This document shows positions 1,727 through 27,000 of a DNA stretch of 64,000 nucleotides, piece after piece; within the stretch, counting starts at the first letter, position 1, and every line of letters begins with the position of its first letter. This stretch comes from an uncultured Solirubrobacteraceae bacterium. Lineage in GTDB: Bacteria > Actinomycetota > Thermoleophilia > Solirubrobacterales > Solirubrobacteraceae. Under the pieces are notes generated by a model. That model was not told where the DNA came from. It searched no databases and saw only the letters and a list, made by a program, of their open reading frames with translations. The position numbers and the translations under genes were made by a program. Where the stretch lies: positions 359,707 through 423,706 of the forward strand of contig CAVSSG010000002.1 in the NCBI GenBank assembly GCA_963730575.1. The letters run 5' to 3'.

Positions 1727-1914
1727 CACGTTGGCAGTATTCCGCAGACGACGTGTGGCGCACCCGAGGCGAGCCAAGACGCCGCCTGCACTCGCATATT
1801 GCCCTCGCTGCGCCTGCATTTCATAGAGCCGCTTTGCGCTGAGTGCCTCCGAGTGCTTCACTTCTCTCATGGGCGGCGCGTGGTCCGCCCGCTTGGAGGC
1901 ACGGAGGGCGAGCG

Positions 1915-2835
1915 ATGACGTGCAAGGCCCTACGGGGTATCGGGGGAGCAGCCTGTATTGCGATGAGCCTGCTCGCGGTGACGGCGAGCGGATCGATGGC
2001 TTCGGGGGTCAAGCTCTGCGTGTCCTCACATGAAGGCTGGCCTGCGATCAGCCCCATCAGGGGTGCCTGCCCAAGCGGCTACACCCTGACGGAACTTGGG
2101 GGCGCTCAAGGCCCGACAGGCCCGAGCGGGCCGACAGGCAAAGAAGGAGCCAAAGGCGTGACCGGGGCTACCGGCCCGACCGGCGCAACGGGAGCCACGG
2201 GAAGCAACGGAGGCAACGGCGCAACGGGAGCCACCGGACCGCAGGGCGTGACCGGAGCGACCGGAGCCACCGGACCGCAGGGGGTAGCGGGAGCAACCGG
2301 ACCCCAGGGTCCCGAAGGCAAGACAGGCCCGACCGGACCACAGGGTACGACCGGCGCGACCCGAGAAGGACCGGCAGGCCCAACAGGACCCGAAGGACTT
2401 CAAGGTCCGGCAGGTCCCGCAGGTGCTTCGGGGTCGAGCGTGGTGGCTCGGGTTAGCGCCGGGCCGACTGCTGTTGGCCACTACCCGGCATACATCCCGG
2501 TTTCGCTCGTGGGCGGCACATGGACTCAGCACGCCGAAGAACTTAGTGTCCTCACGGGGCAGGCGACGTTCACGTCGCCTGCGGGGTCTCCTGGCTGCGG
2601 CGTAGAAATCCAACTGCTTATCGACGGGCAAATGGCGGGAGCCGCCTCTACCATCGTGGCAGGCGCTTCGACGGCAACGCTGGACATTCACTGGGAAGGC
2701 GGAACCGGAGCAAAGACGGAATGGCTCTTCGAGCCTGCGGTAGACACGGTTCACACCCTTACGGCTCGTGCAACCAGGAGTTGCGAAAATAACGTCGAAG
2801 TGAGCGTCTCCGTCGACGTAATCGGCATCCACTAG
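1915..2835 (+). CDS. Secreted collagen-like protein
   Basis: Signal-peptide-like N-terminus, about 37 Gly-X-Y triplets (29 + 8 with one interruption), beta-rich C-terminal domain. Confidence 0.85.
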
Positions 2836-3887: not shown

Positions 3888-6251
3888 CTACGGCGCATCG
3901 GGCGCGGCGATTGCGGTTGCGAGTTCCTGGACTAGCTGCTCAAGAGCGGGGTCGCGGGTGTCGTCGGTGGGCGATCCGTCGAAATGGTAGGAGATGTAGC
4001 GGAACCGACCGCCTCGTTCGCGACCGTTTGCGAAGAAGCAGGCGCTCTTCTCGGACTCTGGCGACGCCATCATGCGGAACAGTGGCGCAAGCTCCAGCGC
4101 ATCAGAGACAGGCTCAGCGTCTTCAAGGAGGTACAGCGACCGCGCCTTGAGGTGCCTCAGGCTCGCCAGCGGGCGCTTGCGGAAGTTTGGGTTGTGGCCC
4201 GTCATCCGTCGAGCGTTGGCATAGAGATTGATCTCGCCGTCGAACTCTCCCGGACCTGGCTCTACGAGGACCGTCGAAGCGAAGGTTCGCTCGGTCGTCT
4301 CGCGCAATTCCGCGAGTAACCTCTCCAGGGTCTCTAGGAGGGCGCGCTTCGCTTGAACGCCCACGGCTCGGTTGTGCGCGAGGTCCTTGCGGGCGTCATT
4401 GGCCTGCTCAAGCACGCCCCACAGGCGCTTATCGCATACGGTCTCAGCGAAACGCGCGTCCGCGATGGCAAACAGCGCGATTCGGGCCTGCTCTCCTGCG
4501 GGTGCGGGCGGATCAGCCGCGTTGTCGGTTGCAACAGCATCCTGTAGCTGGATGCGCACCCACTTGGCAAGCTTGAAGCCGAGCTTGATCCAGCTTCCGA
4601 AGGTGGCTTCCTCAAGAGGGTGGAGGCCGCGTGGGCCTGGTTCGGCGATCTCCTTCAGCTTGGTCTTCCACAGTGACTCGTCGCGACGAGTGGCAGCGAG
4701 CAGAACCGCTACGCCGAACTCCGCGAACGCCTCGAAGAATTGCAAGAGTCGCTCGACCTTGGCCTCGGGCGACGAGTCCGCGATGTAGCGGTCGAGGATT
4801 GATGCGAGCGGAAACGGCAAGCGGTTCACCCACGCCTCTAACGGGTGCTCCCAGTAAGCATCGAGTCGCTCTTCGAGAAACTTGGCGGCGACCGGATTCG
4901 CTGCCAACTCACTCTCGAATGCCTCGACCTCCGCCTGCAATGCATGGAGTCGTTCGTGCAACCCGATGGCACTCCGCTGCTTCGATAAGGGCGGAAGTGG
5001 TACAGAAAGAGTACCTACCGCCTGGAGGCTGAGACGTGGAATCGTCACACCGCTGGATACGGCCTCGCGCGCGATCTTGCCGGTGTTGCTGTTGAGCCAC
5101 CACGCCACGTAGTCGGCCCGTGCAAGCTTCTCGTCTAGCGCGATCTCATACGCTTTACCCGTCGAGGCTGCATTCTTTGGAGGGGCGGGTGGCTCTAGGC
5201 CAACCACTCCGCGTACCTCACGCACGTAGATCGCGTTGTCTCGCGCACTACGCTGGTCTCCGACTTTGGTCGGTGGCAATGCCACGATCTCCGTCGAGAT
5301 GTCAGCCAAGCGTCTGAGCGGAGTTCGCGACGCGCGCAGCCGTTGCCGTAATTCGTGCTGAGCAGCGAACGCGCCCCACCCCTGGTAATCGGACTCAGCG
5401 ACGAGCGCGCCGGTCTCGATGACCCTGCCTGGCCGACGTGCGAGGAGGTTGCGGACTAGTGGACCAGCTTCACCCCCTGGCGCGATATGCGCAACAAAAA
5501 CCGCGTCCTGTTCCTTACGGTCGAACACGATTAGGTTGGTCCTGATCAGCGCCATAGGAGCCAACCCTTGAGCGACCGTGATCGCTGCGTTGAGGTGAAT
5601 GCCCTCTCGTCTGAGGTGCTCGCGTAGCTGGGCCGCCTGCTTGGCATGAAAGAACATGTCGCTGTGAAGAAAGACCGCCTGGCCGTCATCGCCGATTTTC
5701 TTTGCTGCCTCTGCCATGACCCAATAGGCGAGATCGCGGCGATACACGCCTGGCTCAAGAGCGCCTGGCAGGTCGCGGCGTGGCGCAAGGCCGATTGGGG
5801 GTGATGTCGCTACAAGATCGAACGGACCCTCGACCTCTGCCAACGTATCCTCTGGCCTTCCTCCGAGCCACTCGATAGAGCGGCTCGGGCCGGTCGGCAG
5901 CAGATCGGCAAGGTGCTCATTCGGTACCAGCCCGACCGCACGCTTGACGGAGGGAGCTTGTGACGCTTCACCGAGCACGGCTGGGGCGACAACGAAGGGG
6001 TCAAGGACCGACGACGGTGACCACGCATCCGCTAGGGCTCGTACCAGATCGAGAAGATGCCCGGGCCGGGTGATCTCTGAGTGGCGCGGCATCCCAAGCA
6101 GCTTGTTCACATCGCTCCAAGTCAGGCCGCGTTGCGCCTGGATCACCTGCCAAACCAAATCGAGCGTCATCTCTCGATCTCGCATGCTTGCCAGTTCTTG
6201 CCAGGCTTTGGCGTAGGCGGTGTCGCCGATGCCGGTCTCGCGAGTGGCCAT
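3888..6251 (-). CDS. Type I R-M-associated fusion: degenerate N6-MTase fold + HsdS-like TRD + coiled coil + putative HEPN domain
   Basis: VLDPFVVAPAVL and FDLVATSPPIG align with MTase motifs I and IV; DYVAWWLNS...GVTIPRLS...VPLPPLSKQ is an HsdS TRD/conserved-region signature; RKDLAH (RxxxxH) at 4374-4391; start lies 2 bp after the hsdR stop. Confidence 0.75.
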   Translation of the reverse strand: MATRETGIGDTAYAKAWQELASMRDREMTLDLVWQVIQAQRGLTWSDVNKLLGMPRHSEITRPGHLLDLVRALADAWSPSSVLDPFVVAPAVLGEASQAPSVKRAVGLVPNEHLADLLPTGPSRSIEWLGGRPEDTLAEVEGPFDLVATSPPIGLAPRRDLPGALEPGVYRRDLAYWVMAEAAKKIGDDGQAVFLHSDMFFHAKQAAQLREHLRREGIHLNAAITVAQGLAPMALIRTNLIVFDRKEQDAVFVAHIAPGGEAGPLVRNLLARRPGRVIETGALVAESDYQGWGAFAAQHELRQRLRASRTPLRRLADISTEIVALPPTKVGDQRSARDNAIYVREVRGVVGLEPPAPPKNAASTGKAYEIALDEKLARADYVAWWLNSNTGKIAREAVSSGVTIPRLSLQAVGTLSVPLPPLSKQRSAIGLHERLHALQAEVEAFESELAANPVAAKFLEERLDAYWEHPLEAWVNRLPFPLASILDRYIADSSPEAKVERLLQFFEAFAEFGVAVLLAATRRDESLWKTKLKEIAEPGPRGLHPLEEATFGSWIKLGFKLAKWVRIQLQDAVATDNAADPPAPAGEQARIALFAIADARFAETVCDKRLWGVLEQANDARKDLAHNRAVGVQAKRALLETLERLLAELRETTERTFASTVLVEPGPGEFDGEINLYANARRMTGHNPNFRKRPLASLRHLKARSLYLLEDAEPVSDALELAPLFRMMASPESEKSACFFANGRERGGRFRYISYHFDGSPTDDTRDPALEQLVQELATAIAAPDAP

Positions 6252-6253
6252 GG

Positions 6254-9231
6254 TCAGATCGCGCCGCGTGCTCTTTGATAGACGCGGCTGGCGTAGAGGC
6301 CCTTCAGCGCTTCCCGTAGCTCTGTCTCATCAAGAACCCGCTTGACGATTGCCTCGTTGTCGTCCATGCGGCTGATGATCGTGCTCATGAAGCGATCATC
6401 GAAGGCGAGGCGGAAGTTCTCAAGAGTGTTAGCTCGCGCCTGGTCGATGACCGTTGGGATCGGCCATCCAAGTCTGCTCGAACTGGTCGAAGAGCAGCTT
6501 GTCGCGCTCGTCAAGGTTTAGGCCGAATCGCTCGTTGAGTTGTTCGATGATGTCCGAGAGCGGTTCTAGGGGCGGCTCGGCCTGCTTGCCAGCGCCCTCT
6601 CCGTAGATTGTGATGACCTCGCCTGTCTCCGCGTCGAGCGAGAGGGAACCTTCGGAGGTGACCTCGTTACGAAGGTGCGTGAGTTCGACCTCTTCTCCGA
6701 GATCGAGGCGTTCGACGGTTGCTGCATCACGCAGCTTGGACGCCAGCGCTCGGCAGTACGTGTAGTCGCGCTCAAGCGTCGAGTCTTGGAACGAGACTAC
6801 CTGGGAGAGGAACGAGTAGATACGCACGAACTTGTCTACGCCTTCCTTGAATTCAAGCCGCTGCTCCTCCTCCAAGAGCCCGAAACCTCTCAACCGCTGG
6901 GTCGAGTAGGGCGTAGACCTTCCCGTGATCCTTTGGACGCTCGATCTTCAGCAGCAAGGCGACCGTAGCCTCGATCTCCTCTGGCCGCAGGACATCGAAA
7001 TCGTCTAGGCGACGGCGAGTGTCGAACAGCAGGTTCGGATCACTCGGGGGAGCGACGGTTCTCCCGTAATACGGCTCGAACGCGTCAACGATGTCCTCGG
7101 CCTCGTTGCGGAAGTCAAGGACGAACGTGTCCTCCTTTTCCCGATGCCAGCGGTTGAGCCTTGAGAGCGTCTGGACCGCGCTCAGGCCGGTCAGAATCTT
7201 GTCCACGTACATCGTGTGGAGCAAAGGCTGGTCGAAACCCGTCTGGAACTTCTCAGCGACGATCAGTACCTGGTAGGCGTCTTCAGCGAAGCGGTCAGCC
7301 GTTTCCGACATGGGAAAAGCATTCATCTGTGCCTCGGTGTAGGTCAGGGCCTTCTCGTCAATGACCGTGCCCGAGAACGCCACTAGCGTGGTCAGGTCCT
7401 CGTAGCCCTTGCTCTTGATGTAGCGGTCGAGCGCCTGCTTGTAGCGCACAGCGTGAAGGCGAGAGGAAGTGACGACCATCGCTTTCGCCCGCCCGCCAAT
7501 CTTGGGAGCCGTGTGGGTGCGGAAGTGCTCGATGATGACCTCGGCCTTCTGGGCGAGGTTCGTCGGGTGCAGCGACACGAAACGGGCTATCGCACGTCGT
7601 GCCTTCGGTCCCTCGTAGGTCGGGTCCTCGGCGACCTTCTTCTCGATCCGCCAGTAGGTCTTGTAGGTGGTGTAGTTGGCCAGCACGTCGAGGATGAAGT
7701 GCTCCTCGATGGCCTGCCGCATCGAATACAGGTGGAACGGCTCGTAGACGCCCTTGTCCGGGTTGAGACTGCCGAACATCTCAAGCGTGCGAGCCTTCGG
7801 CGTCGCCGTGAATGCGAAGAACGAGAGGTTCGGCTGTTTGCCACGGGCACGGACCTCTTTCGCGACGGCCTCCTCAACCGGATCGGTTGCCGCAGCGATG
7901 AAGCCCGCGTCCTCCGCCTCAGCCGCCGTTAGCTCCTGCTCCTCGGTCGCTCCGAGGACAAGGCGCAACTCCTTCGCCGCCTCTCCGGTCTGGGAAGAGT
8001 GCGCCTCGTCCACGATCACGGCATAGCGCCGGTCAGGAAGCAAGCCAACCTTGTCGAGCACGAACGGGAACTTCTGCAAGGTCGTGATGATGATGCGGGC
8101 CTGCTCTCCGGCGAGGGCGTTCGCAAGCTGGGACGAGTCCTCATCGATCCTCTCGACCACTCCCCGAGCGTGCTCGAACTGGTAGATCGTGTCCTGAAGC
8201 TGTTTGTCCAGGATCACCCGATCTGTGATCACGACCACCTTGTCGAACACCTTCGAGTCGCTGGCGTCGTGCAGCGAGGAGAACCTGTGAGCAGCCCAAG
8301 CAATCGTGTTGGACTTCCCGGAGCCAGCAGAGTGCTCGATCAGGTAGTTCGACCCAGCGCCGTGCGTCTTGGCGTGGGCCTCTAGCTTCAGCACCGCATC
8401 CCATTGATGGAAGCGCGGGAAGATGACCTTCTCGGCTGCACGGCGAGCAGCCGGAGAGCCTTTCGAAGGCCGCTCAACGTGGATGAACCGGGCAAGGATG
8501 TCCATCCAAGAGTCACGGGTCCAGACACGCTCCCAGAGGTAGGAGGTCCGATGGCCATCGGGGTTCGGTGGGTTGCCTGCTCCGCCATCATGGCCGAGGT
8601 TGAATGGCAGGAACTGCGTAGCCTGGCCTGCGAGCTTGGTGGTCATTGCCACGCGATCCGGATCAACTGCGAAGTGGACGAGAGCACGGCGAGCGAGACT
8701 GACGTTCTTCGGGTCCCGGTCGGTGCGGTACTGCCTTATGGCGTGCTCGACCGTCTGGTCCGTCAACTGATTCTTTAGCTCCGCAGTAGCAGTAGGAATG
8801 CCGTTGACCAGGAGGGCTAGATCGATTGTCCTGCCGGAGTCGGCGTCGTAGGGGAACTGGCGGGTGACGCTCACTCGATTGGCCTCGTACAGCTTCTGAA
8901 GCTCTGGCGTCAGGCCGTGGGCGGGCTTGAAGTACGCCAGATGGATCGTGACCCCCAAATCCACGACCCCGCGCCTGAGCACATCAACAGTGCCTCGGTT
9001 ATCAAGCTCGCTTGCTAGCCGCTTCGCGAAACGTGCCCGAGCTTCCTGCCCATGACGACCGGCGAGATCGGCCCAGTCCTTCGCCTGTGTAGCCTCAATG
9101 AACGCGAACAACTCGTCTAGGTCCAGCCCGAGGGTCGCGTCGAAGTTCGACGGCAGGGACTTGAGATAGCCGTGCTGGGTGAGCAAAGACTCCTCGATGG
9201 CATCCTCGAAAAGCTTCTCGTCAACGCTCAT
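6254..9231 (-). CDS. hsdR: Type I restriction enzyme subunit R (two apparent frameshifts near 6873 and 6456)
   Basis: IDLALLVNGIP.ATAELK nuclease motif, HSAGSGKS Walker A, IVDEAH, FTATP, FQTGFDQP, QTLSRLNR; C-terminus continues in ORFs 6429..6893 and 6254..6514. Confidence 0.92.
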
Positions 9232-10478
9232 GCCACTACTCCGGGGATCTGTAGCTCGCCCGTCACGGCGGCGGTGATGAGCGCTTGGCGATGCTCTTGG
9301 AGACGAACTCGCCCCTCTTCGTGCAGGCGAGACAACTCATGCGTTGATCTCTGGACTCGGTTGAACCGCGCAGCGAGTCTTACTTGAATAGGCACTGGAG
9401 GCAGTGGGATCGTCTGTGCGAGAAGATCAGGAAGTAGCAGGTTCTTCAGCGTCGTTGCGGCATTCGTTTCATTGAGATACAACAGAATCAACGGGAGCAA
9501 CGTCCTCAGGAAGCCAACGCTCAGTCGATCTCGCGGTAAGACGCGGCAGACGCGTTGATTGAGGGCCGCACGCCCGCCTTCCCAAGTACCGCAAGCGAAC
9601 TCCCCGGTAAGGCCGACGATCAGATCGCCAGTATTGACGTATGCGCTGTCGGGAACGTTTGTCGCTACATAGGTGTCCGTGTAACCCCTTACCACGTCAC
9701 CGATTCTAATGAGCGGAGTGCCCGCCGAATCGTGCGAAATATCATCCGAGTTGAACGCATACCCGTTACTAACGTGTACGACATCCCTTAGACGGACGAC
9801 CGGCCAGGTCCTCGGCACCTGCCCCGCCCACCATGCGAGTGAGACAAGCTGAGTGTCGTTCTCCCCGTCTATCGCCGTCCCAGAGAATGTCTCTTCCGCA
9901 CGCACTCGAAAGAGTCGTTCCTCCAGCAACTCGACCATCCGCTGCTTCTTCTCGATGAGCGCATCAATACGAGCGGTTTCGGTGTCCAGAAAGTCGGCGA
10001 TGACAGATTGTGTCGCAAGCGGTGGCAGCGCAAGCGGCACGGTCTTCAGATCATCCCACGCGATGTCATTCTGATTCGGCGGCATCCACTTTGATATGCG
10101 CCTAAGCTCCTGTGCCCATGGTGCGGCGTGCAGAAGGTAGTCGGCGTACCTACTATCCACCATGTCTCGTCGTGGGCGGCAAACAAAATAGGCAGGGCTG
10201 ACGATCCCAGAGAATTGCGATACTCCAAGTGCGCCTTGCCAAGTGCGGAGTTTGTTGAAAACGAGATCGCCTGGCTGCACAACCAAGTATGACGAGAGAT
10301 CGTCGCTGAGTGCCTTATAGGAGTAATCGCGGCTCGCTCTGGGTAGTACACCCTGGCCCGTAAATACGGACAGCGGTTCAAGAGCCTTGCCACCGGCCTT
10401 CTTTGATCGGTCGAACGCAACATCCAGCCGAACACTCGTCCACTCGGGCGGCAATACGGCTCCTGGCGGAGAAGTCAC
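9228..10478 (-). CDS. hsdS: Type I restriction specificity subunit S
   Basis: Two TRDs each followed by LPPL/LPPV..Q conserved regions; ends ALITAAVTGEL; overlaps hsdM and hsdR by 4 bp. Confidence 0.93.
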   Translation of the reverse strand: MTSPPGAVLPPEWTSVRLDVAFDRSKKAGGKALEPLSVFTGQGVLPRASRDYSYKALSDDLSSYLVVQPGDLVFNKLRTWQGALGVSQFSGIVSPAYFVCRPRRDMVDSRYADYLLHAAPWAQELRRISKWMPPNQNDIAWDDLKTVPLALPPLATQSVIADFLDTETARIDALIEKKQRMVELLEERLFRVRAEETFSGTAIDGENDTQLVSLAWWAGQVPRTWPVVRLRDVVHVSNGYAFNSDDISHDSAGTPLIRIGDVVRGYTDTYVATNVPDSAYVNTGDLIVGLTGEFACGTWEGGRAALNQRVCRVLPRDRLSVGFLRTLLPLILLYLNETNAATTLKNLLLPDLLAQTIPLPPVPIQVRLAARFNRVQRSTHELSRLHEEGRVRLQEHRQALITAAVTGELQIPGVVA

Positions 10479-12469
10479 CGCGCTACCTCGGCCAGCAGCG
10501 TCTGAATCTCGGCCTCTAGCACTTTGATCTCGGCATCGATCTCAGCCAGCGGTCGCGGTGGAACGTATTTGTAGAAATAGCGCGTGAGCGCGATCTCGTA
10601 GCCGATCTTGGTCTTCTCATGATCCACCCACGCGTCTGCCACGTAGGGGAGAACCTCACGCTCCACGTACTCTTCGACCGAGGTTCCGTACTCAAGGCTG
10701 GCGAGGCGCTCGGTCGGGTCTGCCTCCCATGAGACTGGGATGTTGGGTAGGGGGACCTTCTCGTTGTCTCGAAGCTCGGGGTCCGGCTGCGGATCGCCCC
10801 TCCGGTCGGCGATGATCGGGGCGTCGGAGTCTCGAAAGCTGAGGACATCCCAGACCTGTTTATCGATCCCCTTCGGTACGGAGCCGAGCTTGGAGGCCAT
10901 CTGTTTGCGCTGCGTCGCGGTGACGCCCACGAGGTCTTTGAGCCGGGCTTCTAGGTCTGCTTGCTCTTGAAGCGTGAGCTTCTTCCACTGCTTGGTCGCG
11001 GTCAACTGCTCTATTGCGTCCGAAGGAACCTCCCAGCGCAGACGTAGTGGCCGCTCGACCGTGATGCGCTGATAGCCGAATGCCTCGTTCGGGAATATCT
11101 TGACTTGCTCGTGTTGTCCGAAGTCGGCGTAGAGCCGTGTGATTTCGTTGATCTGTTCGGCGCTGATTTCCTTGCGCTTTTCTCCGAGAGACTTGCGCAT
11201 CTTGACCGAGTAATCGCGGGCATCGATTAGCTGGACCTTGCCCTCGCGCTCTGGGCGCTTGCGGTTAGTGACGATCCAGAAGTACGTCGAGATGCCGGTG
11301 TTGTAGAAGAGTTGATCTGGCAGGGCAACGATGGCCTCTAGCCAATCGCTCTCGATGATCCAGCGGCGAATCTCAGACTCCCCAGACGCCGCCGCTCCGC
11401 TGAAGAGCGGCGATCCATTGAAGACGATGGCTAGGCGGCTTCCTCCGTCCTCGACGGGCTTCATCTTCGAGATCATGTGCTGAAGGAAGAGGAAGCTCCC
11501 GTCGTTGATCCTGGGCAGGCCCGCGCCAAATCGCCCGCGAAATCCGAGGCTCTCATGCTCGCCACGGATCGAGCCCTCGACCTTCTTCCACTCGACGCCA
11601 AATGGCGGATTAGCGAGCAGGTAGTCGAATGTCTCGCCCTGGTGGCCGTCCTCGCTGAAGGAGTTGCCGCACACGATGCGCGAGGGGTCATCGCCCTTCA
11701 GCATCATGTCCGAGCGGCAGATGGCGTACGTCTCGTCATTTAGCTCCTGGCCGAAGACCTCAAGGCGGGCAGTTGGGTTGTGCTCGGCCAAATAGTCCTT
11801 GGCGACCGAGAGCATTCCCCCAGTCCCGCAGGCTGGGTCTAGGAGCGTCTTGATCGCGCCTGGATCGGCAAGGGCCTCATCGTCCTCTGCAAAGAGCAGG
11901 CTCACCATGAGGCGGACGACCTCACGGGGGGTGAAGTGCTCTCCTGCCGTCTCGTTCGATAGCTCCGAAAAGCGCCTGATTAGCTCCTCATAGAGATAGC
12001 CCATCTCCGTGTTCGAAACGACCGAGGGGTGCAGGTCGATGTCCGCGAACTTCGAGATGACCAGATACAGCAGGTCGGCTTTGGCCAGGCGCGTGACTTG
12101 CCCGTCGAAGTCGAACTTGTCGATGACCTCCCTCGCTCCTGGACTGAAGGCCGCGATGTAGGCTCGAAGGTTGCCCGCAAGCTGCCCTGGATCGTTCAGG
12201 AGCTTTCGGAAGTCGAGCGGCGAAGTGTTGAAGAACCTCTCGCCAGCGACGTTTTCGAGGACCGGCTCGACGTTCTCAATCCGGCCTTTGAGCTTCTGGG
12301 CACGGTCGAGGACGGCCTCCTTCGTCGGCTCAAGCACGCAGTCAAGGCGGCGCAAGACGGTCAGGGGGAGGATGACCCTGCCGTACTCCGACTGCTTGTA
12401 GTCCCCCCGCAGCAGGTCGGCCACCGACCAGATGAAGGCAGCGTGGTTCTTGATCGTGTCCTCAGCCAT
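10475..12469 (-). CDS. hsdM: Type I DNA methyltransferase subunit M
   Basis: FIWSVADLLRGDYK, GEHFTPREV, LDPACGTGGML (motif I), NPPFG (motif IV, m6A). Confidence 0.95.
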   Translation of the reverse strand: MAEDTIKNHAAFIWSVADLLRGDYKQSEYGRVILPLTVLRRLDCVLEPTKEAVLDRAQKLKGRIENVEPVLENVAGERFFNTSPLDFRKLLNDPGQLAGNLRAYIAAFSPGAREVIDKFDFDGQVTRLAKADLLYLVISKFADIDLHPSVVSNTEMGYLYEELIRRFSELSNETAGEHFTPREVVRLMVSLLFAEDDEALADPGAIKTLLDPACGTGGMLSVAKDYLAEHNPTARLEVFGQELNDETYAICRSDMMLKGDDPSRIVCGNSFSEDGHQGETFDYLLANPPFGVEWKKVEGSIRGEHESLGFRGRFGAGLPRINDGSFLFLQHMISKMKPVEDGGSRLAIVFNGSPLFSGAAASGESEIRRWIIESDWLEAIVALPDQLFYNTGISTYFWIVTNRKRPEREGKVQLIDARDYSVKMRKSLGEKRKEISAEQINEITRLYADFGQHEQVKIFPNEAFGYQRITVERPLRLRWEVPSDAIEQLTATKQWKKLTLQEQADLEARLKDLVGVTATQRKQMASKLGSVPKGIDKQVWDVLSFRDSDAPIIADRRGDPQPDPELRDNEKVPLPNIPVSWEADPTERLASLEYGTSVEEYVEREVLPYVADAWVDHEKTKIGYEIALTRYFYKYVPPRPLAEIDAEIKVLEAEIQTLLAEVAR

Positions 12470-12550
12470 ATCGCCTGATCCCCTCGTCATACCCCGCGTT
12501 TCGGGGCTGAGCCTATCGAGGCAGACGGCGCTGTGGTCGGGTCCCGTGCT

Positions 12551-13228
12551 TCACGCGGCCAGCTTCGAGATGCTCGCGATTGGCTGCGTCTGACCGTGCG
12601 GCTCCTCGGACGCTCTAGCCAGCCTTGTGGGGCGCGGGGAATCCGGGTCTGTGGACATCTCTGGGTCCAGCACGTCGCGCCACACCAGCCCTGCCTTGAT
12701 TCGCGAGACATGGCTTTGCGTGATGCCGTAGCGTTCGGCCAGGACGTGCTGCGGCTCATTGCATCGCCTGATCTCGATCACGTTGGCACGGGTGAGCTTG
12801 CACTTGCCGCATCGCCTCAGGTTCTCGCGCCTGTCCACAGCCTCCAAGTGATCCACGTCAATGCACGCGCGTTCACAGCACTTGTGGTCAATCTCTAACC
12901 CATCCTCTATCTCCCCGTGGACCCGTTCGAATTCGGCACGATGGGCTAGAACCTTCTTACCACCCAAGGACTGCCTTACGTAGCCGTCTTTGCCCGCTGC
13001 GAGCGTCGATATCAGACACGGGGTCGGATACCTGCGTTGCTCCACGACTCCCCTCACTAACTTGCGGTTCTGATGCCCCGGCACCCAAGGCAGCGGCTGG
13101 CCCTTGATTCGCCCTCCCTTCCGGTTGGTGGTCTTGGCAAGCGCAGTTCGCCCGCCACACCCGCACTGGCAATGGCGGATGGGTGGCAGCGACTCCGGGT
13201 GACTCTTGCTGGGCGGAACGGGCGGCAT
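12551..13228 (-). CDS. HNH endonuclease-like protein (CxCGCG, HNH, C-terminal HTH)
   Basis: CQCGCGG; LAHR...EIDHKCCERACIDVDHLEAVDRREN; LAERYGITQSHVSRIK. Confidence 0.85.
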   Translation of the reverse strand: MPPVPPSKSHPESLPPIRHCQCGCGGRTALAKTTNRKGGRIKGQPLPWVPGHQNRKLVRGVVEQRRYPTPCLISTLAAGKDGYVRQSLGGKKVLAHRAEFERVHGEIEDGLEIDHKCCERACIDVDHLEAVDRRENLRRCGKCKLTRANVIEIRRCNEPQHVLAERYGITQSHVSRIKAGLVWRDVLDPEMSTDPDSPRPTRLARASEEPHGQTQPIASISKLAA

Positions 13229-13357
13229 CGCCTATTAGCAACGCGAATGGGTGAAGAAACATGTACATGCGTCTCATCCCGTCGTTTGAATCAAGAGCCG
13301 GTGCCTGATAAAATGTGTACTCGGAAACCATCAAGAGCGGTCGAGCGATTCAGCGCG

Positions 13358-14131
13358 ATGACGCCGCAGCAACCGACCGTATGGCACGGTGCTACTGCTG
13401 AAATCGATGGAGGTAATGTGAAGGTTCTTGCGTACACTCGCTGTTCAACTGAGGAGCAAGCAGTAGAAGGCGTGAGCCTTTCCACTCAGCTTGGGCGCAT
13501 CGAAGCCTGGTGCGAGGCCACCGGTGCGGAGCTTGCGGGAGTGATTGAAGATGCGGGCGTGTCAGGAACTCGCCCGCTGGCTGATCGTCCTGGCGGTGCT
13601 CGGGTAGCATCTCTCCTAGAAGCCCGCAATCCTGACGTTGATGCGGTGATCGTCGTGCGCCTAGACAGGCTGGCAAGGAATGCAGCCGATGCTCTGCACT
13701 ATTTGCACAAGTTCGCAAGAGGCTCTGTCGGCCTGGTGTCCATCGATGATCGCCTCGATTTGGCGTCGCCTCAGGGCAAAGCCATGGCGCAGATGAGCGC
13801 GGTCTTCGCGGAACTGGAGCGCAACCTCGGGGCTCAGCGGACTTCAGACGCCCTCTGCGGACTTCGTTCGCTCGCGGCGAGGCTTACGGACCAACGCCCT
13901 TCGGTTTCGAGCGTAACGGCGACAGCCTGTTCCCCCACGAGCCCGAGCAGAAGGCGCTCGCCAAGATGAGGCGAGCTGAGAGCGAAGGGCCAAAGCTATC
14001 GAGCTATCGCTCACTCTATGAATCGCTCGGGAACCCCGGCCAAGAACGGCGGCGCGTGGTTCGCATCATCGGTGCGCTCCACCCTCTTGACTAGCGAGAA
14101 GGTAGGGCTTCCACGGGCGGCAGTGGCGTGA
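13358..14131 (+). CDS. Serine recombinase (resolvase catalytic domain + short recombinase/wHTH domain), frameshifted near 13870-13980
   Basis: AYTRCSTEEQ, DAGVSG, RLDRLAR, FAELER; downstream frames give YGPTPFGF...SYRAIAHSMNRSG...GGAWFASSVRS ending at TGA 14129-14131. An alternative start is GTG 13418. Confidence 0.85.
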
Positions 14132-19149: not shown

Positions 19150-19407
19150 TTGGCCACGAGGGTGGCGGACGTGGCTCCACGATCCGAACCCCAACTCGCC
19201 CTCGGACAGGCCATCCGCCATGCGAGGCTCAGTCGCGGCCTCAGCCAGGAGGAGGTTGCACACAAGGCCGACCTGCACCCGACCTGGCTCAGTCATATCG
19301 AGGCAGGTCGCAATCCGGCCTGGGGCACCGTGCGGCGCATCGCCTCCGGTCTTGGGATTGAGGTTTCAGAGCTTGCGCGGCTCGCAGAGCAGATCGACAA
19401 GACCTAG
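19150..19407 (+). CDS. XRE-family HTH transcriptional regulator
   Basis: GLSQEEVAHKADLHPTWLSHIEAGRNPAW. Confidence 0.88.
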   Translation: MATRVADVAPRSEPQLALGQAIRHARLSRGLSQEEVAHKADLHPTWLSHIEAGRNPAWGTVRRIASGLGIEVSELARLAEQIDKT

Positions 19408-19508
19408 CTCCCACCAAGCGCCAAAGACACGTCGCCGGTCGCCATCTCAGCTACGACACCGGTGCCGACTGTCAGGAGAAGCCCCCGTGGTGCCGATACC
19501 GAACCGCG

Positions 19509-20144
19509 ATGGCCAGCGAACACCTTGGTGATCCCGGTGGAAGCGCCCATCTCAACGCGCAGCGTCTACGCGAAGAATACGAAGCGCTGAGGGCAAGCCG
19601 CAGCCCTCTCGGGCGCATGCTCACGGCCCTCTTTCCGTCTGCCAAGGAAAAGAGGCTTTGCCAGGAAGAGCGCAACTGGCTCACTGGCGCTGAAGGCGAG
19701 CAGGGCCTCGCGAGTTCGCTTGCCCAGCGTTGTCCTCACGTCCCCCTGCTCCACGACCGGCGCGCGCCTTCGAGCCGAGCGAACATCGACCACATCGCCA
19801 TCGCGCCCTCCGGCGTCTACGTGATCGACTGCAAGCGGTACAGGGGCAAGATCGAGGTCGCCACTCCCCTCTTGGGAAAGCCCAAGCTCAAGATCAACGG
19901 ACGCGACCGGACGAAGCTCATCGACGGCCTCGACAAGCAGGTAGCCACGTCAAGGCTGCGCTTGGCGACGTTGCTGAGGATGTTTCCGTCCACGGCTGCC
20001 TCTGCTTCGTCGCCCCCGAGCTACCCGCTCTATTACGCCAAGCGACTCGCGAAGCGCCTGAACCAAGAAGGCCCGATCACGGTCGATCAAGCACAGCGAC
20101 TCAAGGAAGAGCTTGCACGATGTCTTCCGCCAGCGTTTCCATAG
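19509..20144 (+). CDS. NERD-domain nuclease-related protein (frameshift/deletion near 19945-20020)
   Basis: GAEGE...LLHDRR...ANIDHIAIAPSGVYVIDCKRY; HVKAALG...VHGCLCFV lies in another frame. Confidence 0.8.
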   Translation: MASEHLGDPGGSAHLNAQRLREEYEALRASRSPLGRMLTALFPSAKEKRLCQEERNWLTGAEGEQGLASSLAQRCPHVPLLHDRRAPSSRANIDHIAIAPSGVYVIDCKRYRGKIEVATPLLGKPKLKINGRDRTKLIDGLDKQVATSRLRLATLLRMFPSTAASASSPPSYPLYYAKRLAKRLNQEGPITVDQAQRLKEELARCLPPAFP

Positions 20145-20208
20145 CGTTTCCATGGGCTCTGCCCCCGAGGGCTCCGAGAGGCCATCGACCCAATAGAATC
20201 GGGCTCTC

Positions 20209-20281
20209 GGGGCCATAGCTCAGATGGGAGAGCGCCTGCTTTGCAAGCAGGAGGTCACCGGTTCGATCCCGGTTGGCTCCA
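20209..20281 (+). tRNA. tRNA-Ala(TGC)
   Basis: Full cloverleaf GGGGCCA/TGGCTCC with G3:U70, anticodon loop TT-TGC-AA, TTCGATC T-loop; CCA not encoded. Confidence 0.97.
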
Positions 20282-20313
20282 CTGCAGAAGTGCCTGCAAA
20301 TGGGCCGGTTTTA

Positions 20314-21823
20314 GTAAGCGTTCAGTTGGTTGGGGGACATGATCCCGGCGCGTCGAATCCCTATGCGTGGAGCGCTCTGAAGCGGAGGCGATCTACGACG
20401 CCGGACGCGAGGTCGTGGTCGAGGTGCTGCTGCGGATGGACGAGCAGATCCGCAGGCTGGAGGCCCGTGTCGCTCGTCAAGACGAGCGGATCGCCCAGCT
20501 CGAGCGGCGGCTGAACCGCAGCTCGCGGAACTCCTCGTCTCCGCCGAGCTCAGATCCGCCCAACCGGACGTCCGAGCGCGGCAAGGACCCATCCGGGCGC
20601 AAACGCGGTGGCCAGCCCGGTCACGAGGGGCGCGGACGGGATCTGTTGCCGGCGTTGGCGGTGGACGAGGTGATCGAGCACTGGCCCTCGCGCTGCGGTT
20701 GCGGACACGTCTTCGGCGAGCAGGAGCACGACCGGGCTGGAGAGCCAGTCGTTCACCAGATCGAAGAGCTACCCGAGCTGACCGTGAGAGTGATCGAGCA
20801 CCGTGCCCAGCGCCTTTGCTGCCCGCGCTGTGGGCGCAGATCTCGTGCGCAGCTGCCGCGGGAGCTCACTGCGAGCTCCTTCGGTCCCCGCCTTCAGGCA
20901 GCGCTCGTAGCGCTCTCGGTGCGCAACCGTGTCTCCCGTCGTGACGTGGTCGAGCTCGGCGAAGAGCTTTTCGGTGCCCGCCTGTCGACGGGAAGCGTCG
21001 ATACCCTCCTCACCCGCGCCAGCGAAGCGCTCGCCGAGCCCTATGAGGACCTGCTCGGGCGGGTTCGCGATGCGGGGGCGCTCAACGCGGATGAGACGGG
21101 CTGGCGCACCGCCGGAGAGCGCCGCGCGCTGTGGGGCCTTTTCACCAGCCGTCACGCCTTCTTCCAGGTCGCGCGGGACCGTCACGAGGACCACGCCAAG
21201 AGCCTGCTCGCCGACACCCAGGCGGTCGTCACCTCTGACCGCTGGTGGGCATACCGCAACCTGCCTTTGCGCCGCCGCCAGCTCTGCTGGTCTCATTTGC
21301 AGCGCGACTTCGTTGCCCATGCCGAAGGACTCGCCGCCGAGAAAGAGTTCGGCGAGCACGGCCTTGAGCTCTCACACGAAGTGCTCTCGGCTTGGGAGAC
21401 CTTCCAACACACCCACGACCGGCGCGAGCTCAAGCGCACGATCACCCGGCTGGCACGCACCTACAAGCCGATCATCGCCAGCTACGCCGCTAAGCGAGCT
21501 CGCAACAAACGCTGTCGCGGCATGGCGCGCAACCTTCTCAAGGCCTGGCCCGCGCTCTGGAGCTTCGCTAAACACGACGGCGTGGAGCCAACGAACAACC
21601 ACGCTGAGCGTGGCCTTCGCGGCGCAGTCATCTACCGCAAGCTCTCCCTCGGCACCCAATCCCAGGGCGGCGAGCGGCGCATCGAGCGACTGCTCTCCGC
21701 CCACACCACCTGCCGCCTACAACACCGCTCGCTCTACGACTACCTCAGCGAGCTCCTCACCGCCCACGCACGTGGCGACCCACTGCCACTGCTCGCCTGA
21801 CCAGCGACCCACTGAACGCTTAC
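20314..21823 (+). mobile_element. IS66-family element (single-ORF, ISBst12-like), copy 1
   Basis: Terminal IRs GTAAGCGTTCAG / CTGAACGCTTAC; left flank cggtttta, right flank not duplicated. Confidence 0.93.
20367..21800 (+). CDS. IS66-family transposase
   Basis: NSSSPPSSD, GGQPGHEG, ADETGW, QLCWSHLQRDF, PTNNHAERGLR. Confidence 0.95.
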   Translation: MERSEAEAIYDAGREVVVEVLLRMDEQIRRLEARVARQDERIAQLERRLNRSSRNSSSPPSSDPPNRTSERGKDPSGRKRGGQPGHEGRGRDLLPALAVDEVIEHWPSRCGCGHVFGEQEHDRAGEPVVHQIEELPELTVRVIEHRAQRLCCPRCGRRSRAQLPRELTASSFGPRLQAALVALSVRNRVSRRDVVELGEELFGARLSTGSVDTLLTRASEALAEPYEDLLGRVRDAGALNADETGWRTAGERRALWGLFTSRHAFFQVARDRHEDHAKSLLADTQAVVTSDRWWAYRNLPLRRRQLCWSHLQRDFVAHAEGLAAEKEFGEHGLELSHEVLSAWETFQHTHDRRELKRTITRLARTYKPIIASYAAKRARNKRCRGMARNLLKAWPALWSFAKHDGVEPTNNHAERGLRGAVIYRKLSLGTQSQGGERRIERLLSAHTTCRLQHRSLYDYLSELLTAHARGDPLPLLA

Positions 21824-21831
21824 GCAAACTA

Positions 21832-23456
21832 AGCCTTGATCCACCGTTTGTAGAGGGCGTGGCAGCTGGCGGCGGCTTTGCACGGGCTGAGGCCAGTTGA
21901 GGCCGTCGGTGATGCGTGTTGGGCGCGGAAGCGCTCGGCTTGGAGGTCTCGGGCGAAGCAGAGACGCTCAGGATGCGGGTGTTTCGACAAGGCGGGAGCT
22001 TCGCCGGTGGCGTGTGCTCCTGCGTTTGTCTTCGAGGCGGCTCAGGCGATGGCGGGGAGCGCTCGGATGCGCGTGAGCGCTTGGGTGAAGTCGGTCTGCC
22101 AGGGCCAGCGGGCGGGCAGGTGAATCGTTGATCGTCGTGCGGTGCGGGTGATCCTTCCGGGCAGGCTGAACAGTCGCCGGCGGGTGGTGGCCGCCGTTCT
22201 GGGTGTCGGGTCGCTGAGTCCGAGCAGGGCGCTCCAGCGCGAGAGGTTGTGCGCTAGGCAGGCGATGACCGTCCAGGCGCTGTTGGCGCTGAAGTGACCG
22301 GAGGGGAAGTGCGCGAGGGCTTGGTCTTTGAGGTCGCGGATGACCAGCTCAACGACGGCGTGCTGGCGATGCTCAGCATCGACGAGATGCATCGGCTCTG
22401 AGCGGTTGGTGATGAACGAGTGGTGTCGCCAGTAGGTAAACAGCTCGCCTTGGTCCTCCTGGACGCGCAGGTGCACCCGGCGCACGATCAGCCGCTCATC
22501 GCCGAGGGTCGTCTCGGCCAGCTCACAGACCCCCGTGTCCGGATAGTCCTCGACGGGCTGCCAGTCCTCATCCGGGATCTGGGCGATCCGCGCCGCGACA
22601 GCCGGGTGCATGTTCACGCCGATCGAGAAGCGGCAGCCCTGCTTCTTGAGATAGGCGCAGACCTTCTTGTTCCAGAATCCCGAGTCGCCGCGCAGCAGGA
22701 TCTCACCACTCGCGCCGGCGCGGCGGACCCTGGGGATGAGCTCTTGGACGAACCGCAGCGCGCCGCGCTGGGTGTTGGCCTGCCCCTTGCGCTGGCGGAC
22801 GTGCAGCACCTCGGCGGTGTCGCCCCGGCTGGCCATCAACGGGTGATAACCAAGCTGACCGGTGTAGCCATAGCCAGCGCCCTGCTTTGCGTGCCCGTGG
22901 ACCTCGCCCACGAACGAATCGATATCGATTACCAGGCGCTCCTCGTCTGGGCCGGCGCCCGCTGACCACGCTCGCGCCAGCGCAGTAGCGAGCATCTGGT
23001 CGAGCTGGCGAACATGCCCGAAGGTAAACGAGCGCAGAAACGTTCCAAGCATCGAGGGGGCCATCGCATGGTGGCCGAGAACCGCCTCGGTGCGCCCGAC
23101 GCGCAACAGATCGCAGTCATCGATGCTGTCGGCGCCGAGCAGCATCGCGTGCGCCAGCGAGAGCACCTTGCGCCCCGGACGCGCTGCCCCCGGGCGCTCA
23201 CCGAGATCGACGCTCTCATCGACCAGCGCCTCAATACCCAGCCGCTGTCCAAGCGTCACTGGCAGCAAGATCCCAGCGTTCGCGACAACACGCTCGTCAT
23301 CGAAGGCCACCGCTAGTCGGTCCGGACGGTCCTGCACCATAAGGGTGACCTCCTGTGCAGGACCCGCAGCCGCTGGCACGGCCCGTCTTGCCTGCTCAGG
23401 AGGTCATTTCACTGGCCCAACCGGACGACCCCGTCACAAAACGGTGGATCAAGGCT
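21832..23456 (-). mobile_element. IS1380-family element
   Basis: Perfect 21-bp inverted repeat at 21829-21849 and 23439-23459, which includes the flanking CTA/TAG target bases. Confidence 0.88.
22042..23340 (-). CDS. IS1380-family transposase
   Basis: IDIDS, GYHPL, LLRGDSGF, VELVIRDLKD, FSANSAW, LHLP-like IHLPARWPW; RBS AGGAGG before ATG 23340. Confidence 0.92.
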   Translation of the reverse strand: MVQDRPDRLAVAFDDERVVANAGILLPVTLGQRLGIEALVDESVDLGERPGAARPGRKVLSLAHAMLLGADSIDDCDLLRVGRTEAVLGHHAMAPSMLGTFLRSFTFGHVRQLDQMLATALARAWSAGAGPDEERLVIDIDSFVGEVHGHAKQGAGYGYTGQLGYHPLMASRGDTAEVLHVRQRKGQANTQRGALRFVQELIPRVRRAGASGEILLRGDSGFWNKKVCAYLKKQGCRFSIGVNMHPAVAARIAQIPDEDWQPVEDYPDTGVCELAETTLGDERLIVRRVHLRVQEDQGELFTYWRHHSFITNRSEPMHLVDAEHRQHAVVELVIRDLKDQALAHFPSGHFSANSAWTVIACLAHNLSRWSALLGLSDPTPRTAATTRRRLFSLPGRITRTARRSTIHLPARWPWQTDFTQALTRIRALPAIA

Positions 23457-24099: not shown

Positions 24100-27000
24100 A
24101 TGGCGGACGGACATGGGGGGCTTAGTTCCGAGCGGCCTGCTAATTGGCGCGCGTCGGTCGGCGTGCGCTGGGCGGGGCCTGCGGTGCGCCTGGTGGTTGT
24201 CGCGGTTGCCCTCTTCAGCTCTGTGCTCACCCAGGCAGCGAGCGCGTATGGACCTGGGTTCTCTTGGACACCTTCTGCGACTGAGCCCTACGCGGCGTGC
24301 GGTCGTCCTACGCCTGGTCATGCTGAGTGCTTGGCGGTGCTCGTTCCGCCCGCCACAAAAGCCTCCTTGACCGCCCCGCTGCGAGAAGCCGCTCCGTCGG
24401 TGAGCCCGACCTACACGGGCACCGGTGTCGGGGGAGGCTATGGTCCCGCGGACCTGCGCTCCGCATACAATCTCCCCTCAGAAGCAGAGGGCTCCGGACA
24501 GACGGTGGCGATCGTCGACGCCTACAACGATCCCAATGCAGAAGTCGATCTGGGCACCTACCGCTCGCAGTATGGGATCCCGGCGTGCACGACGGCCAAC
24601 GGCTGCTTCAAGAAGGTCAACCAGACCGGGGGCACCACCAACTACCCATCGTCGAATGCCGAATGGTCCGTTGAGATCTCCCTCGACGTGGACATGGTGT
24701 CCGCCGCCTGCCCGAACTGCCACATCCTGCTGGTCGAGGCCGAATCGAGCTCAAGCGCCAACCTGGACAAATCCGAGGACGAGGCGGTCACGCTCGGGGC
24801 GACCGAGGTCAGTAACAGCTGGGTTGGCCCGGAGGAATCCGATGAGACATCGACGGACAAATATTTCGATCACCCGGGCGTGCCGATCGTGGCAGGGGCG
24901 GGCGACTCCGGTTACGGAGTCGCCTACCCGGCAGCCTCGCAGTATGTGATCGCCGCCGGCGGGACGAGGCTGATTCAGGCATCGAACTCGCGGGGGTGGA
25001 CTGAGACCGTCTGGGAGGAAAAAGAAAAGGGAATCGGCACGGGCAGCGGCTGCAGCGCCTATGAGCCAAAGCCAACCTGGCAGACCGATAAAGCATGTAC
25101 GCGGAGGACAGATGACGACATCGCGGCTGACGCCGCGGTGGAAACACCCGTCTCCGTAGCGGATTCATACGAACTTCCGACCAAGTTCGCCGAACGGTCG
25201 ACGCAGGCGGGATGGACGTTGGTGGGTGGGACTAGCGCCGCCAGCCCGTTCATCGCAGCGACGATGGCGCTGGCGAGCCCCCATACGAGATCACTCGGCG
25301 CCGAGGCGTTCTACATGGAGGCCACAAGCGGCGGCGGCATCAACGATGTGGTGTCCGGGAGCAACGGAAAATGCACGCCGCCCGCCGAAGACGAATATCT
25401 CTGCACCGCACAGGTCGGCTACGACGGGCCGACGGGCGTGGGCACCCCCTGGGGCGCCCCGCAGGCGCCGCCGACGGTCGTCACAAAAGCTGCCTCTTCC
25501 ATCACCCAGACCTCGGCCACCCTGAACGCAACGGCGAACCCCAACGGCGGGTCGGTCAGCGAATGCAAGCTCGAATACGGCACCACGACCTCCTACGGCT
25601 CAAGCGCGTCGTGCGCCCCATCGCCGGGGTCAGGTGAAAGCGCGGTGGCAGTGTCCGGGTCGATAGCGGGCCTGACTGCGAACACGACCTACCACTTCAG
25701 GATCTCGGCAGCCAACTCCGGCGGCACGACCAAGGGCTCAGACGAAACGTTCAAAACGACGGAAGCAGCCGCCACGCCCCCGACCGTCGAAACAAGAGCG
25801 GCCTCGGCGGTCAGCCAGACCACCGCGACCCTAAACGCGACCGTGAACCCCAACGCCGGGTCGGTCAGCGAATGCAAGCTCGAATACGGCCTAACAAACA
25901 CCTACGGGTCAAGTGCCACTTGCACGCCCTCGCCGGGATCGGGGACCAGCCCCGTAGCGGTCTCCGCGGCCGTCACGGGCCTTAGCCCGAACACCACCTA
26001 CCACTTCAGGATCTCCGCCACGAACGCGGGCGGCACGAGCAAGGGCTCTGACGAAACCTTCAAAACACTCGTGAGCCCACCAACCGTCGTGACCAAGGCG
26101 GCTTCATCGGTCGCGCAGACTACCGCGAGCCTGAACGCGAGCGTGAACCCCAACGGCGGGGAAGTCAGCAAGTGCGAATACGAATATGGCGAAACCGCTG
26201 CTTACGGGAAAACGGCTCAGTGCGGCTCGCCGCCCGGGTCGGGGACGAGCCCAGTCGAAGTCACGGCCTCGCTTACGGGGCTCACAGCGAACACCACCTA
26301 CCACTTCAGGATCTCAGCGACGAACGCGGGCGGAACCAGCAGGGGGTCTGACGAAACGTTCAGGACGCTGCCGAACCCTCCGACGGTCGCGACGTGCTCG
26401 GCGGCATCGATCACCCAGACCTCGGCGAGGTTGCACTGCACGGTTAACCCCGGCGGCGCCGAAGTCACCGAATGCAAGTTCGAATTCGGCACCACCAACT
26501 CATACGGCTCAAACGCCGCGTGCACGCCGCCGCCGGGGTCGGGGACCAGCCCGGTCGAAGTGTCCGCAGAAGTCACGGGCCTTAGCACAAACACGACGTA
26601 CCACTTCCGGATCTCGGCGACGAACTCCGGCGGCACGGGCACAGGCTCTGACGAAACGTTCACAACCCTGCCGAACGCCCCGATGGTCGTGACCAAAGCG
26701 GCCTCGGAAGTCAAACAGACGACAGCGACGCTGAACGCGACGGTCAACCCCAACGGCGGGAACGTCACCAAATGCGAATTCGAATACGGCGAAACGACCT
26801 TCTACGGCAACACGGCCTCCTGCGCCTCGCTGCCGGGTTCGGGGACGAGCGCCGTTGCGGTCTCCGCAGCGGTCACCGGCCTCGCAGCGAACACGACCTA
26901 CCACTTCCGCATCTCCGCGACGAACGGCGGCGGCACGAGCAAGGGGGCAGACGAAACGCTCAAAACGCTGCCCAACGCCCCAGCGGTCGTGACGAAACCG

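Follow-up and report, generated by a model that had tools for sequence, protein, structure and literature searches.

A methylase-like fourth gene of a type I restriction operon, tentatively read as a decoy fused to a HEPN-type effector

What would a methylase-like protein with broken catalytic motifs do in an operon that already encodes a type I restriction-modification (R-M) enzyme? The question is raised by a 64,000-nucleotide stretch from an uncultured Solirubrobacteraceae bacterium (contig CAVSSG010000002.1, positions 359,707 to 423,706; hereafter the window), in which hsdM, hsdS, hsdR and a fourth gene lie on one strand, in that order. The fourth gene (3888..6251, minus strand; open reading frame [ORF] call) encodes 787 amino acids, arranged as a degenerate N6-methylase fold, one target recognition domain (TRD), a coiled coil, a HEPN-like domain and a beta-rich tail (AlphaFold2 model; predicted local distance difference test [pLDDT] 87.3). 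We tentatively propose, at a shade under an even chance, that it is a self-contained decoy guarding type I restriction, in which a non-catalytic HsdM-like fold, the TRD and the coiled coil are fused to a likely HEPN RNase. An anti-phage abortive role is, in itself, quite probable.

Conservation was assessed in two sets of homologs. A word-index search with the window protein returned only five full-length homologs, at 26–32% identity, and their alignment retrieved 62 loci from the GTDB species collection. The first set held 53 sequences, that is, 47 loci whose ORF was uninterrupted, spanned 690 or more amino acids and matched at E<1e-100, plus P0001–P0006, P0001 being the window protein. The search patterns behind it left out the R/H motif discussed below but contained E507. 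The second set, of 158 sequences, joined these 53 to 106 members of 700–900 amino acids, taken from the 149 that were new among the top 150 profile matches.

A methylase fold without its catalytic motif

Residues ~59-300 (5352..6077) form an HsdM-like methylase fold. The family profile aligned with the window HsdM at 97% probability (hhalign, E 1.7e-11), pairing EITRP with EHFTP, LDPFVVAP with LDPACGTG and SPPIG with NPPFG, which bears out the broken motifs described in the original prediction, an earlier reading of this DNA made from the letters alone. Foldseek with the full AlphaFold2 model recovered type I and TaqI-type methylases, the top match being 7eew_A, a type I methylase solved with Ocr (E 3.8e-12), and N6_Mtase matched 35 of the 53 members. 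With the window protein itself, Pfam and NCBIfam gave no significant match, and sequence searches of the PDB gave only matches at E≥0.2. In this copy, both glycines of motif I are missing (6011-5979) and motif IV reads SPPIG (5804-5790). Short-read contigs showed no difference over motif I (5878-6029), over motif IV (5659-5948) or, from three runs, over the C-terminal RKDLAH. Thus, the degenerate motifs and the lysine at position 622 are real, and sequencing error was ruled out as their source.

Across the family, the catalytic motif IV, [DNS]PP[FYW], was found in only 7 of 158 members (SPPI in the window copy), as against 26 of 30 neighbouring HsdM-labelled proteins; one of the four controls without it is itself a member of the fourth-gene family. 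Only three of the seven also have GxG. The catalytic position is unconstrained, with C in 32, D in 20, S in 15, E in 15, V in 13, F in 11 and I in 10 of the 158. Homologs that keep an intact methylase are thus few. In the six close pairs for which dN/dS (ratio of nonsynonymous to synonymous substitution rates) could be computed, among eight examined, it was 0.08–0.46 for the methylase fold, and 0.04–0.11 for the HEPN region in five of the six. These codon comparisons indicate that the methylase fold is under purifying selection and is not decaying.

Loss of the glycine-rich S-adenosylmethionine (SAM) loop, as originally predicted, holds for the window copy but not for the family, 99 of whose 158 members keep GxG; the loop is missing from the window copy (DPFVVAP), its actinobacterial sister sequences and a Bacillota clade. 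This mixed picture bears on the idea of a cofactor sensor, in which the methylase fold would bind SAM, and loss of SAM, to phage SAM lyases for instance, would free the RNase. Speaking for it, D84 is kept in 143/158, P85 in 150/158 and the second glycine in 140/158, and much of the family has a GD-like motif; an EcoSal review names depletion of SAM as a trigger still to be discovered (PMC12707154). We nevertheless consider it very unlikely, given the lineages without GxG, a motif II acidic residue present in only 44 of 158 members, and a TRD that would be needless.

Two members, P0076 (956 amino acids) and P0156 (1001 amino acids), carry a full HsdM with intact motifs ahead of the same TRD and HEPN-like C-terminal domain; they may show the origin of the fusion, or be later fusions. 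We also noted, as distant matches, four actinobacterial proteins (P0008–P0010 and P0013) with a helix-turn-helix (HTH)-like N terminus, a methylase domain and a TRD-like end but no HEPN domain, three of them with CNPPY or CHPPF. Three HsdM-labelled neighbours without [DNS]PP[FYW] (L020:1688-3328, L031:5041-6636 and L047:4579-6510) may be atypical methylases or mislabelled.

TRD, coiled coil and predicted dimer

The single HsdS-like TRD of the original prediction was recovered at residues ~305-420 (4992..5339). PADLOC specificity models match residues ~340-451 (best mad5, E 1.5e-9; Specificity_I, E 1.8e-7), and Methylase_S matches 16 of the 53 members at E≤0.05. A recent duplication of the adjoining hsdM and hsdS was ruled out, since cognate subunits score no better than others: the median share of non-cognate subunits scoring above the cognate one was 66% for HsdM (n=24) and 38% for HsdS (n=30). 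Two loci (L010 and L012) encode fourth-gene proteins that are 100% identical, next to HsdM at 91%, HsdR at 95% and HsdS at only 26% identity. More broadly, homologs at 65–86% identity adjoin R-M subunits mostly at 22–44% identity (the tree behind these locus comparisons was a quick version). By these comparisons, the TRD does not follow the specificity of the neighbouring HsdS.

A rather unlikely alternative is that the dimer described below binds DNA itself, either at a fixed palindromic site or through a modified base that flips into the former catalytic pocket, so that foreign or wrongly modified DNA would switch the HEPN RNase on. The scaffold of the pocket is indeed kept (P152 in 145 of 158, and F, L, W, I or M at 153 in 147), the catalytic N or D being often C, V, F or I. 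The TRD and methylase fold evolve faster than the HEPN domain, and GmrSD-type modification-dependent genes recur nearby (cluster C2, nine loci). Yet the indifference of the TRD to the host HsdS argues against such a sensor, and a fixed-site reader would risk self-killing. Moreover, sequence-reading TRDs usually diversify, whereas the median cross-phylum identity of this TRD is 0.25 as compared with 0.18 for HsdS halves, the two values coming from different alignments.

The coiled-coil spacer (residues ~421-468, 4848..4991) is predicted, in the AlphaFold2 and dimer models, to form an antiparallel homodimer interface. Prediction for residues 300-783 scored 0.60 versus 0.00 for the best control, with no less than 79% of the contacts recurring from run to run and a partner pLDDT of at least 80. 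In a benchmark, 20 of 30 homodimers of solved structure attained the required mark, as did 1 of 23 monomers. The predicted interface joins residues 418-467, running antiparallel (contacts 431-449, 439-439 and 442-442), and residues 381-391 of the TRD. HsdS sets its two TRDs by the same antiparallel coiled-coil arrangement, and solved HsdS structures may in part explain why the predicted dimer reached the mark. A methylase fold, TRD and coiled coil are also combined in 7eew, which we take to be an M/half-S construct, and in half-HsdS M2S2 enzymes. Half-HsdS dimers are functional. These enzymes are active and have no effector domain, in contrast to the fourth-gene protein.

A dimer of the whole protein would hold two methylase folds and two TRDs, the layout of the M2S methylase to which Ocr and ArdA bind (PMC9613975). 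The dimer model has no confident contact beyond residue 467, and HEPN–HEPN pairing is neither shown nor excluded by it. The original prediction had dimerisation activate the RNase. As the predicted dimer is likely constitutive through its coiled coil, this step is amended, and activation would be a rearrangement within the dimer.

The HEPN-like C-terminal domain

Conservation peaks in the HEPN region, where the median pairwise identity is 0.36 versus 0.245 for the methylase fold. This helical domain (residues ~469-655, 4287..4847) carries E507 in helix 2 (4733-4731), an insert, RKDLAH at the end of helix 3 (4391-4374), and helix 4. RxxxxH had been taken in the original prediction as the HEPN signature. 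Its bare presence is at chance level, with four matches in P0001 and at least one in 80% of 2000 shuffles, so that support rests on conservation instead. In the 53-sequence set, gathered without this motif, R621 and H626 were found in 53/53 and N at 622 in 52/53. In the larger set, R and H were invariant (158/158) and N followed R in 157, the sole exception being the window copy with its K. The spacer between R and H has five residues in 134 members and four in 24, giving a canonical family motif, RN-x3-4-H. The lysine that the original prediction had flagged as non-canonical is thus a trait of the window copy, not of the family. Polar, and atypical for HEPN, it is accompanied by an R in place of G beside the motif; the window copy is an atypical family member, and the odds that it is active are only slightly better than even.

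Six polar columns are at least 95% conserved, and E507, R621, N622 and H626 make up four of them. E507 (157/158), itself part of the search pattern, lies in helix 495-523 and is followed at +4 by E, Q or A, as against the Ex3[KR] typical of HEPN. In the AlphaFold2 model, helix 608-626 bears the motif and helix 632-653 comes next. The models agree with the HEPN description of a published survey (PMC3710099) in the order of the helices and in where the motif lies, and the best natural structural matches of the helical domain include HEPN proteins, at modest Z. Foldseek with the C-terminal model returned nothing at E≤0.001; weak ribosomal S4e-like matches were not relied on. Weak profile matches, below cut-off, were to HEPN_Swt1 in 4 of 46 members, the only family matched more than once, and to Abi_2 and HEPN_Apea once each. 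In hhalign against nine Swt1-like HEPN domains, the motif was aligned (E 0.0018). The Swt1-like and Abi2 families (PF18731, PF07751) share the R-N-x-x-(x)-H placement, and AHN follows the motif in some Swt1-like members too; the fourth-gene family differs by its long insert, its WxETLPFPLA and FFEA motifs and its beta-rich tail. This tail (residues ~656-787, 3891..4286) is conserved, with family motifs NACYF and SYHF, and had no usable match in the Atlas.

Collectively, these data make it very likely that the C-terminal domain belongs to the HEPN-type RNase family. The protein might instead be no RNase at all, but a methylase, accessory or atypical, whose helical domain merely resembles HEPN. 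Consistent with this, relatives are named "N-6 DNA methylase" in RefSeq, a few members keep NPPF or DPPF, and HEPN fold scores are modest. Set against the absence of catalytic motif IV from 151 of 158 members and the near-invariance of the C-terminal R, N and H, this explanation seems quite unlikely.

The same C-terminal domain was also seen behind a different N-terminal region (L064:8954-11032), and its look-alikes in the Atlas include clusters with SAM_1/2 or EAD11 (scores of 0.76-0.77, leads only). The C-terminal effector may therefore serve in other systems too.

A candidate guardian of type I restriction

The adjoining R-M genes were identified by Pfam and PADLOC, all on the minus strand: hsdM (10475..12490), with its DPACGTGG and NPPF motifs intact, hsdS with two TRDs (9228..10478), and hsdR (6254..9231). 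The TGA of hsdR (6256-6254) is followed by CC and then by the fourth-gene ATG at 6251, which confirms the predicted 2-bp gap in an hsdM-hsdS-hsdR operon. In the assembly, hsdR is spread over three frames (6853-9231, 6429-6893 and 6254-6514). However, the base at 6879 is missing from the short-read contigs of runs X1 and X2, and that at 6454 from those of X2 and X4; by coordinate arithmetic, removing both merges the frames into one gene of 991 codons. Since neither base has support in the short-read contigs, the frameshifts are assembly errors, and a pseudogenised hsdR, which would have made the locus Ronin-like, was ruled out. On sequence grounds, the type I R-M system beside the fourth gene is probably intact. 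Other frameshifts in the same long-read assembly may likewise be errors. A scan for promoters and terminators gave nothing above chance.

Discarding one weak 70-residue match left 61 loci, 40 of them with at least 7 kb on both sides. With profiles seeded from the window genes, hsdM, hsdS and hsdR were all detected at 28 of these 40, hsdR at 29 and at least one hsd gene at 30. A rough background, ~19 HSDR_N matches in 61 window-related genomes (not matched to the hosts), amounts to well below 1% per 22 kb. Gene order in the 31 loci with all three (X, fourth gene) was M-S-X-R in 14, M-S-R-X in 7, R-M-S-X in 4, X-M-S-R in 2 and other in 4. The order of the window, M-S-R-X, recurs on a Gordonia plasmid (NZ_CP047236.1). 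The homolog there is annotated as two genes split inside the TRD, near a SIR2 gene (L003:8897-11416). Other neighbours in the family were defence genes, namely GmrSD, AbiJ/Abi_C, an RloC-like AAA_13 protein, a CBASS cyclase, SIR2, AbiEii and HipA; the Pfam scan of near neighbours covered 87 of 89, two duplicates being left out.

Tight operon linkage, and the M-S-X-R order that it shares with PrrC, could mean that the protein docks on the adjoining HsdM, HsdS or HsdR, is kept inactive there and fires when the complex is disturbed. PrrC itself works so (PMC3710099, PMC12707154). However, close homologs sit beside strongly divergent R-M subunits (see above), 10 of the 40 loci have no hsd gene within ~10 kb, and a Streptomyces plasmid copy stands alone. 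Such docking is therefore unlikely, although hsdR occurs elsewhere in 8 of those 10 genomes, as judged with a model blind to some HsdR subfamilies.

The simplest account is a decoy wired to an RNase, because the methylase is conserved yet non-catalytic, the TRD is uncoupled from host specificity, the predicted dimer is HsdS-like, the HEPN motif is conserved and the gene is linked to R-M systems. The original prediction had seen in the M/S-like half a decoy or sensor for anti-restriction proteins or a DNA modification state; the predicted HsdS-like dimer and the independence of the TRD from host specificity favour this idea. Two copies would pair via the coiled coil into a symmetric shape resembling the M2S methylase, and a DNA-mimic inhibitor such as Ocr or ArdA, whose actual target is the genuine enzyme, would bind to the decoy as well. 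Binding would cause a rearrangement within the dimer that places its two HEPN motifs side by side. RNA of the host would then be cut, probably tRNA if PrrC is a guide, and the infection halted. We somewhat favour the binding of an anti-restriction protein to the decoy as the trigger. In its broader form, the account would be that of a widespread single-chain receptor with an integrated decoy, a dimer of dead methylase and half specificity subunit wired to a HEPN RNase, whose cassette is passed among unrelated type I R-M operons of bacterial phyla and some archaea. For that, we put the chances a little short of even.

Few R-M guardians are named in the literature consulted, namely PrrC, PARIS, Ronin and EcoR22I. 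The fourth-gene protein would resemble Ronin in its way of working: there, HsdM/HsdS machinery is a decoy through which Ocr or ArdA is sensed and cell death triggered, and the catalytic motif of the methylase is not needed (bioRxiv 10.1101/2023.04.06.535777). In Ronin, hsdM and hsdS are separate genes, hsdR is absent and the toxin is a 61-residue membrane protein; HEPN is not mentioned in the paper. In contrast, the fourth gene encodes one chain with one TRD and a HEPN-like effector, beside a complete hsdMSR. PrrC and RloC share with it a C-terminal HEPN domain, a gene placed within a type I hsdMSR operon and, if our reading holds, second-line abortive defence, but have an ABC-ATPase as sensor, PrrC being held by EcoprrI, where the fourth gene has a methylase fold and TRD (PMC3710099, PMC12707154). 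No ATPase family was found among the Pfam matches of the 53 members. PARIS (AriA/AriB) senses Ocr and responds by tRNA cleavage, as the fourth gene may do, yet it consists of two proteins, its sensor being an ATPase and its nuclease a distinct protein that is released, and has no methylase-like decoy (PMC12707154, PMC12409349).

Neither PADLOC-DB 2.0 nor NCBIfam 20 gave a full-length match to a system model, the window protein obtaining only TRD-sized matches, and the C-terminal halves of 46 members gave only single weak matches to defence-system models (best E 0.002). The architecture was not found in Pfam, PADLOC, NCBIfam or the literature searched, although newer catalogues, subscription papers and supplements may hold it. 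The family is thus apparently undescribed; it would work like Ronin and is placed like PrrC, but is a member of neither.

The 62 loci fall in Actinomycetota, Bacillota, Acidobacteriota, Verrucomicrobiota, Planctomycetota, Pseudomonadota, Bacteroidota, Chloroflexota and one archaeon, and a profile of the C-terminal half matched 865 clusters at 50% identity with E≤1e-30 (1815 with E≤1e-3). The same profile had no match in 400 other genomes of the phylum, and 60 relatives searched with the single window protein gave only one weak methylase-only match. The family is rare per genome and patchy. Four plasmid records carry it, and it was not found in a phage collection searched with P0017. Cultured carriers that are not pathogens include Modestobacter altitudinis, Alkalibacterium putridalgicola, Salinibacillus kushneri and Mesobacillus maritimus.

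In the window, signs of mobile elements lie around the operon, at 12551-13969, 19150-23379 and 30518-31948. They comprise an HNH endonuclease (12551-13228, minus), a serine resolvase (13073-13969, plus), genes of HTH and NERD type, a pair of IS66 transposases and one further DDE transposase. Between insertion sequences, a 2032-residue protein rich in NHL and fibronectin type III repeats is encoded at 24100-30195 (plus). A Gly-X-Y collagen-like repeat protein with a signal-like N terminus is encoded at 1843-2835 (plus).

The family is real and widespread, and is probably a variant among R-M guardian systems. In the databases its members are called "hypothetical protein" or, in RefSeq, "N-6 DNA methylase", and at least 865 clusters at 50% identity are hidden under these names. 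Sensor and effector are apparently one polypeptide. According to a 2013 survey, HEPN domains linked to R-M systems are found fused to nucleases, helicases and ATPases but "not to the methylases" (PMC3710099); if our reading is correct, the family would be an exception to that rule. It would also show an R-M enzyme turned immune receptor, a counterpart in bacteria of those plant receptors that carry their own decoy, and some proteins annotated as methylases at R-M loci would be RNase effectors.

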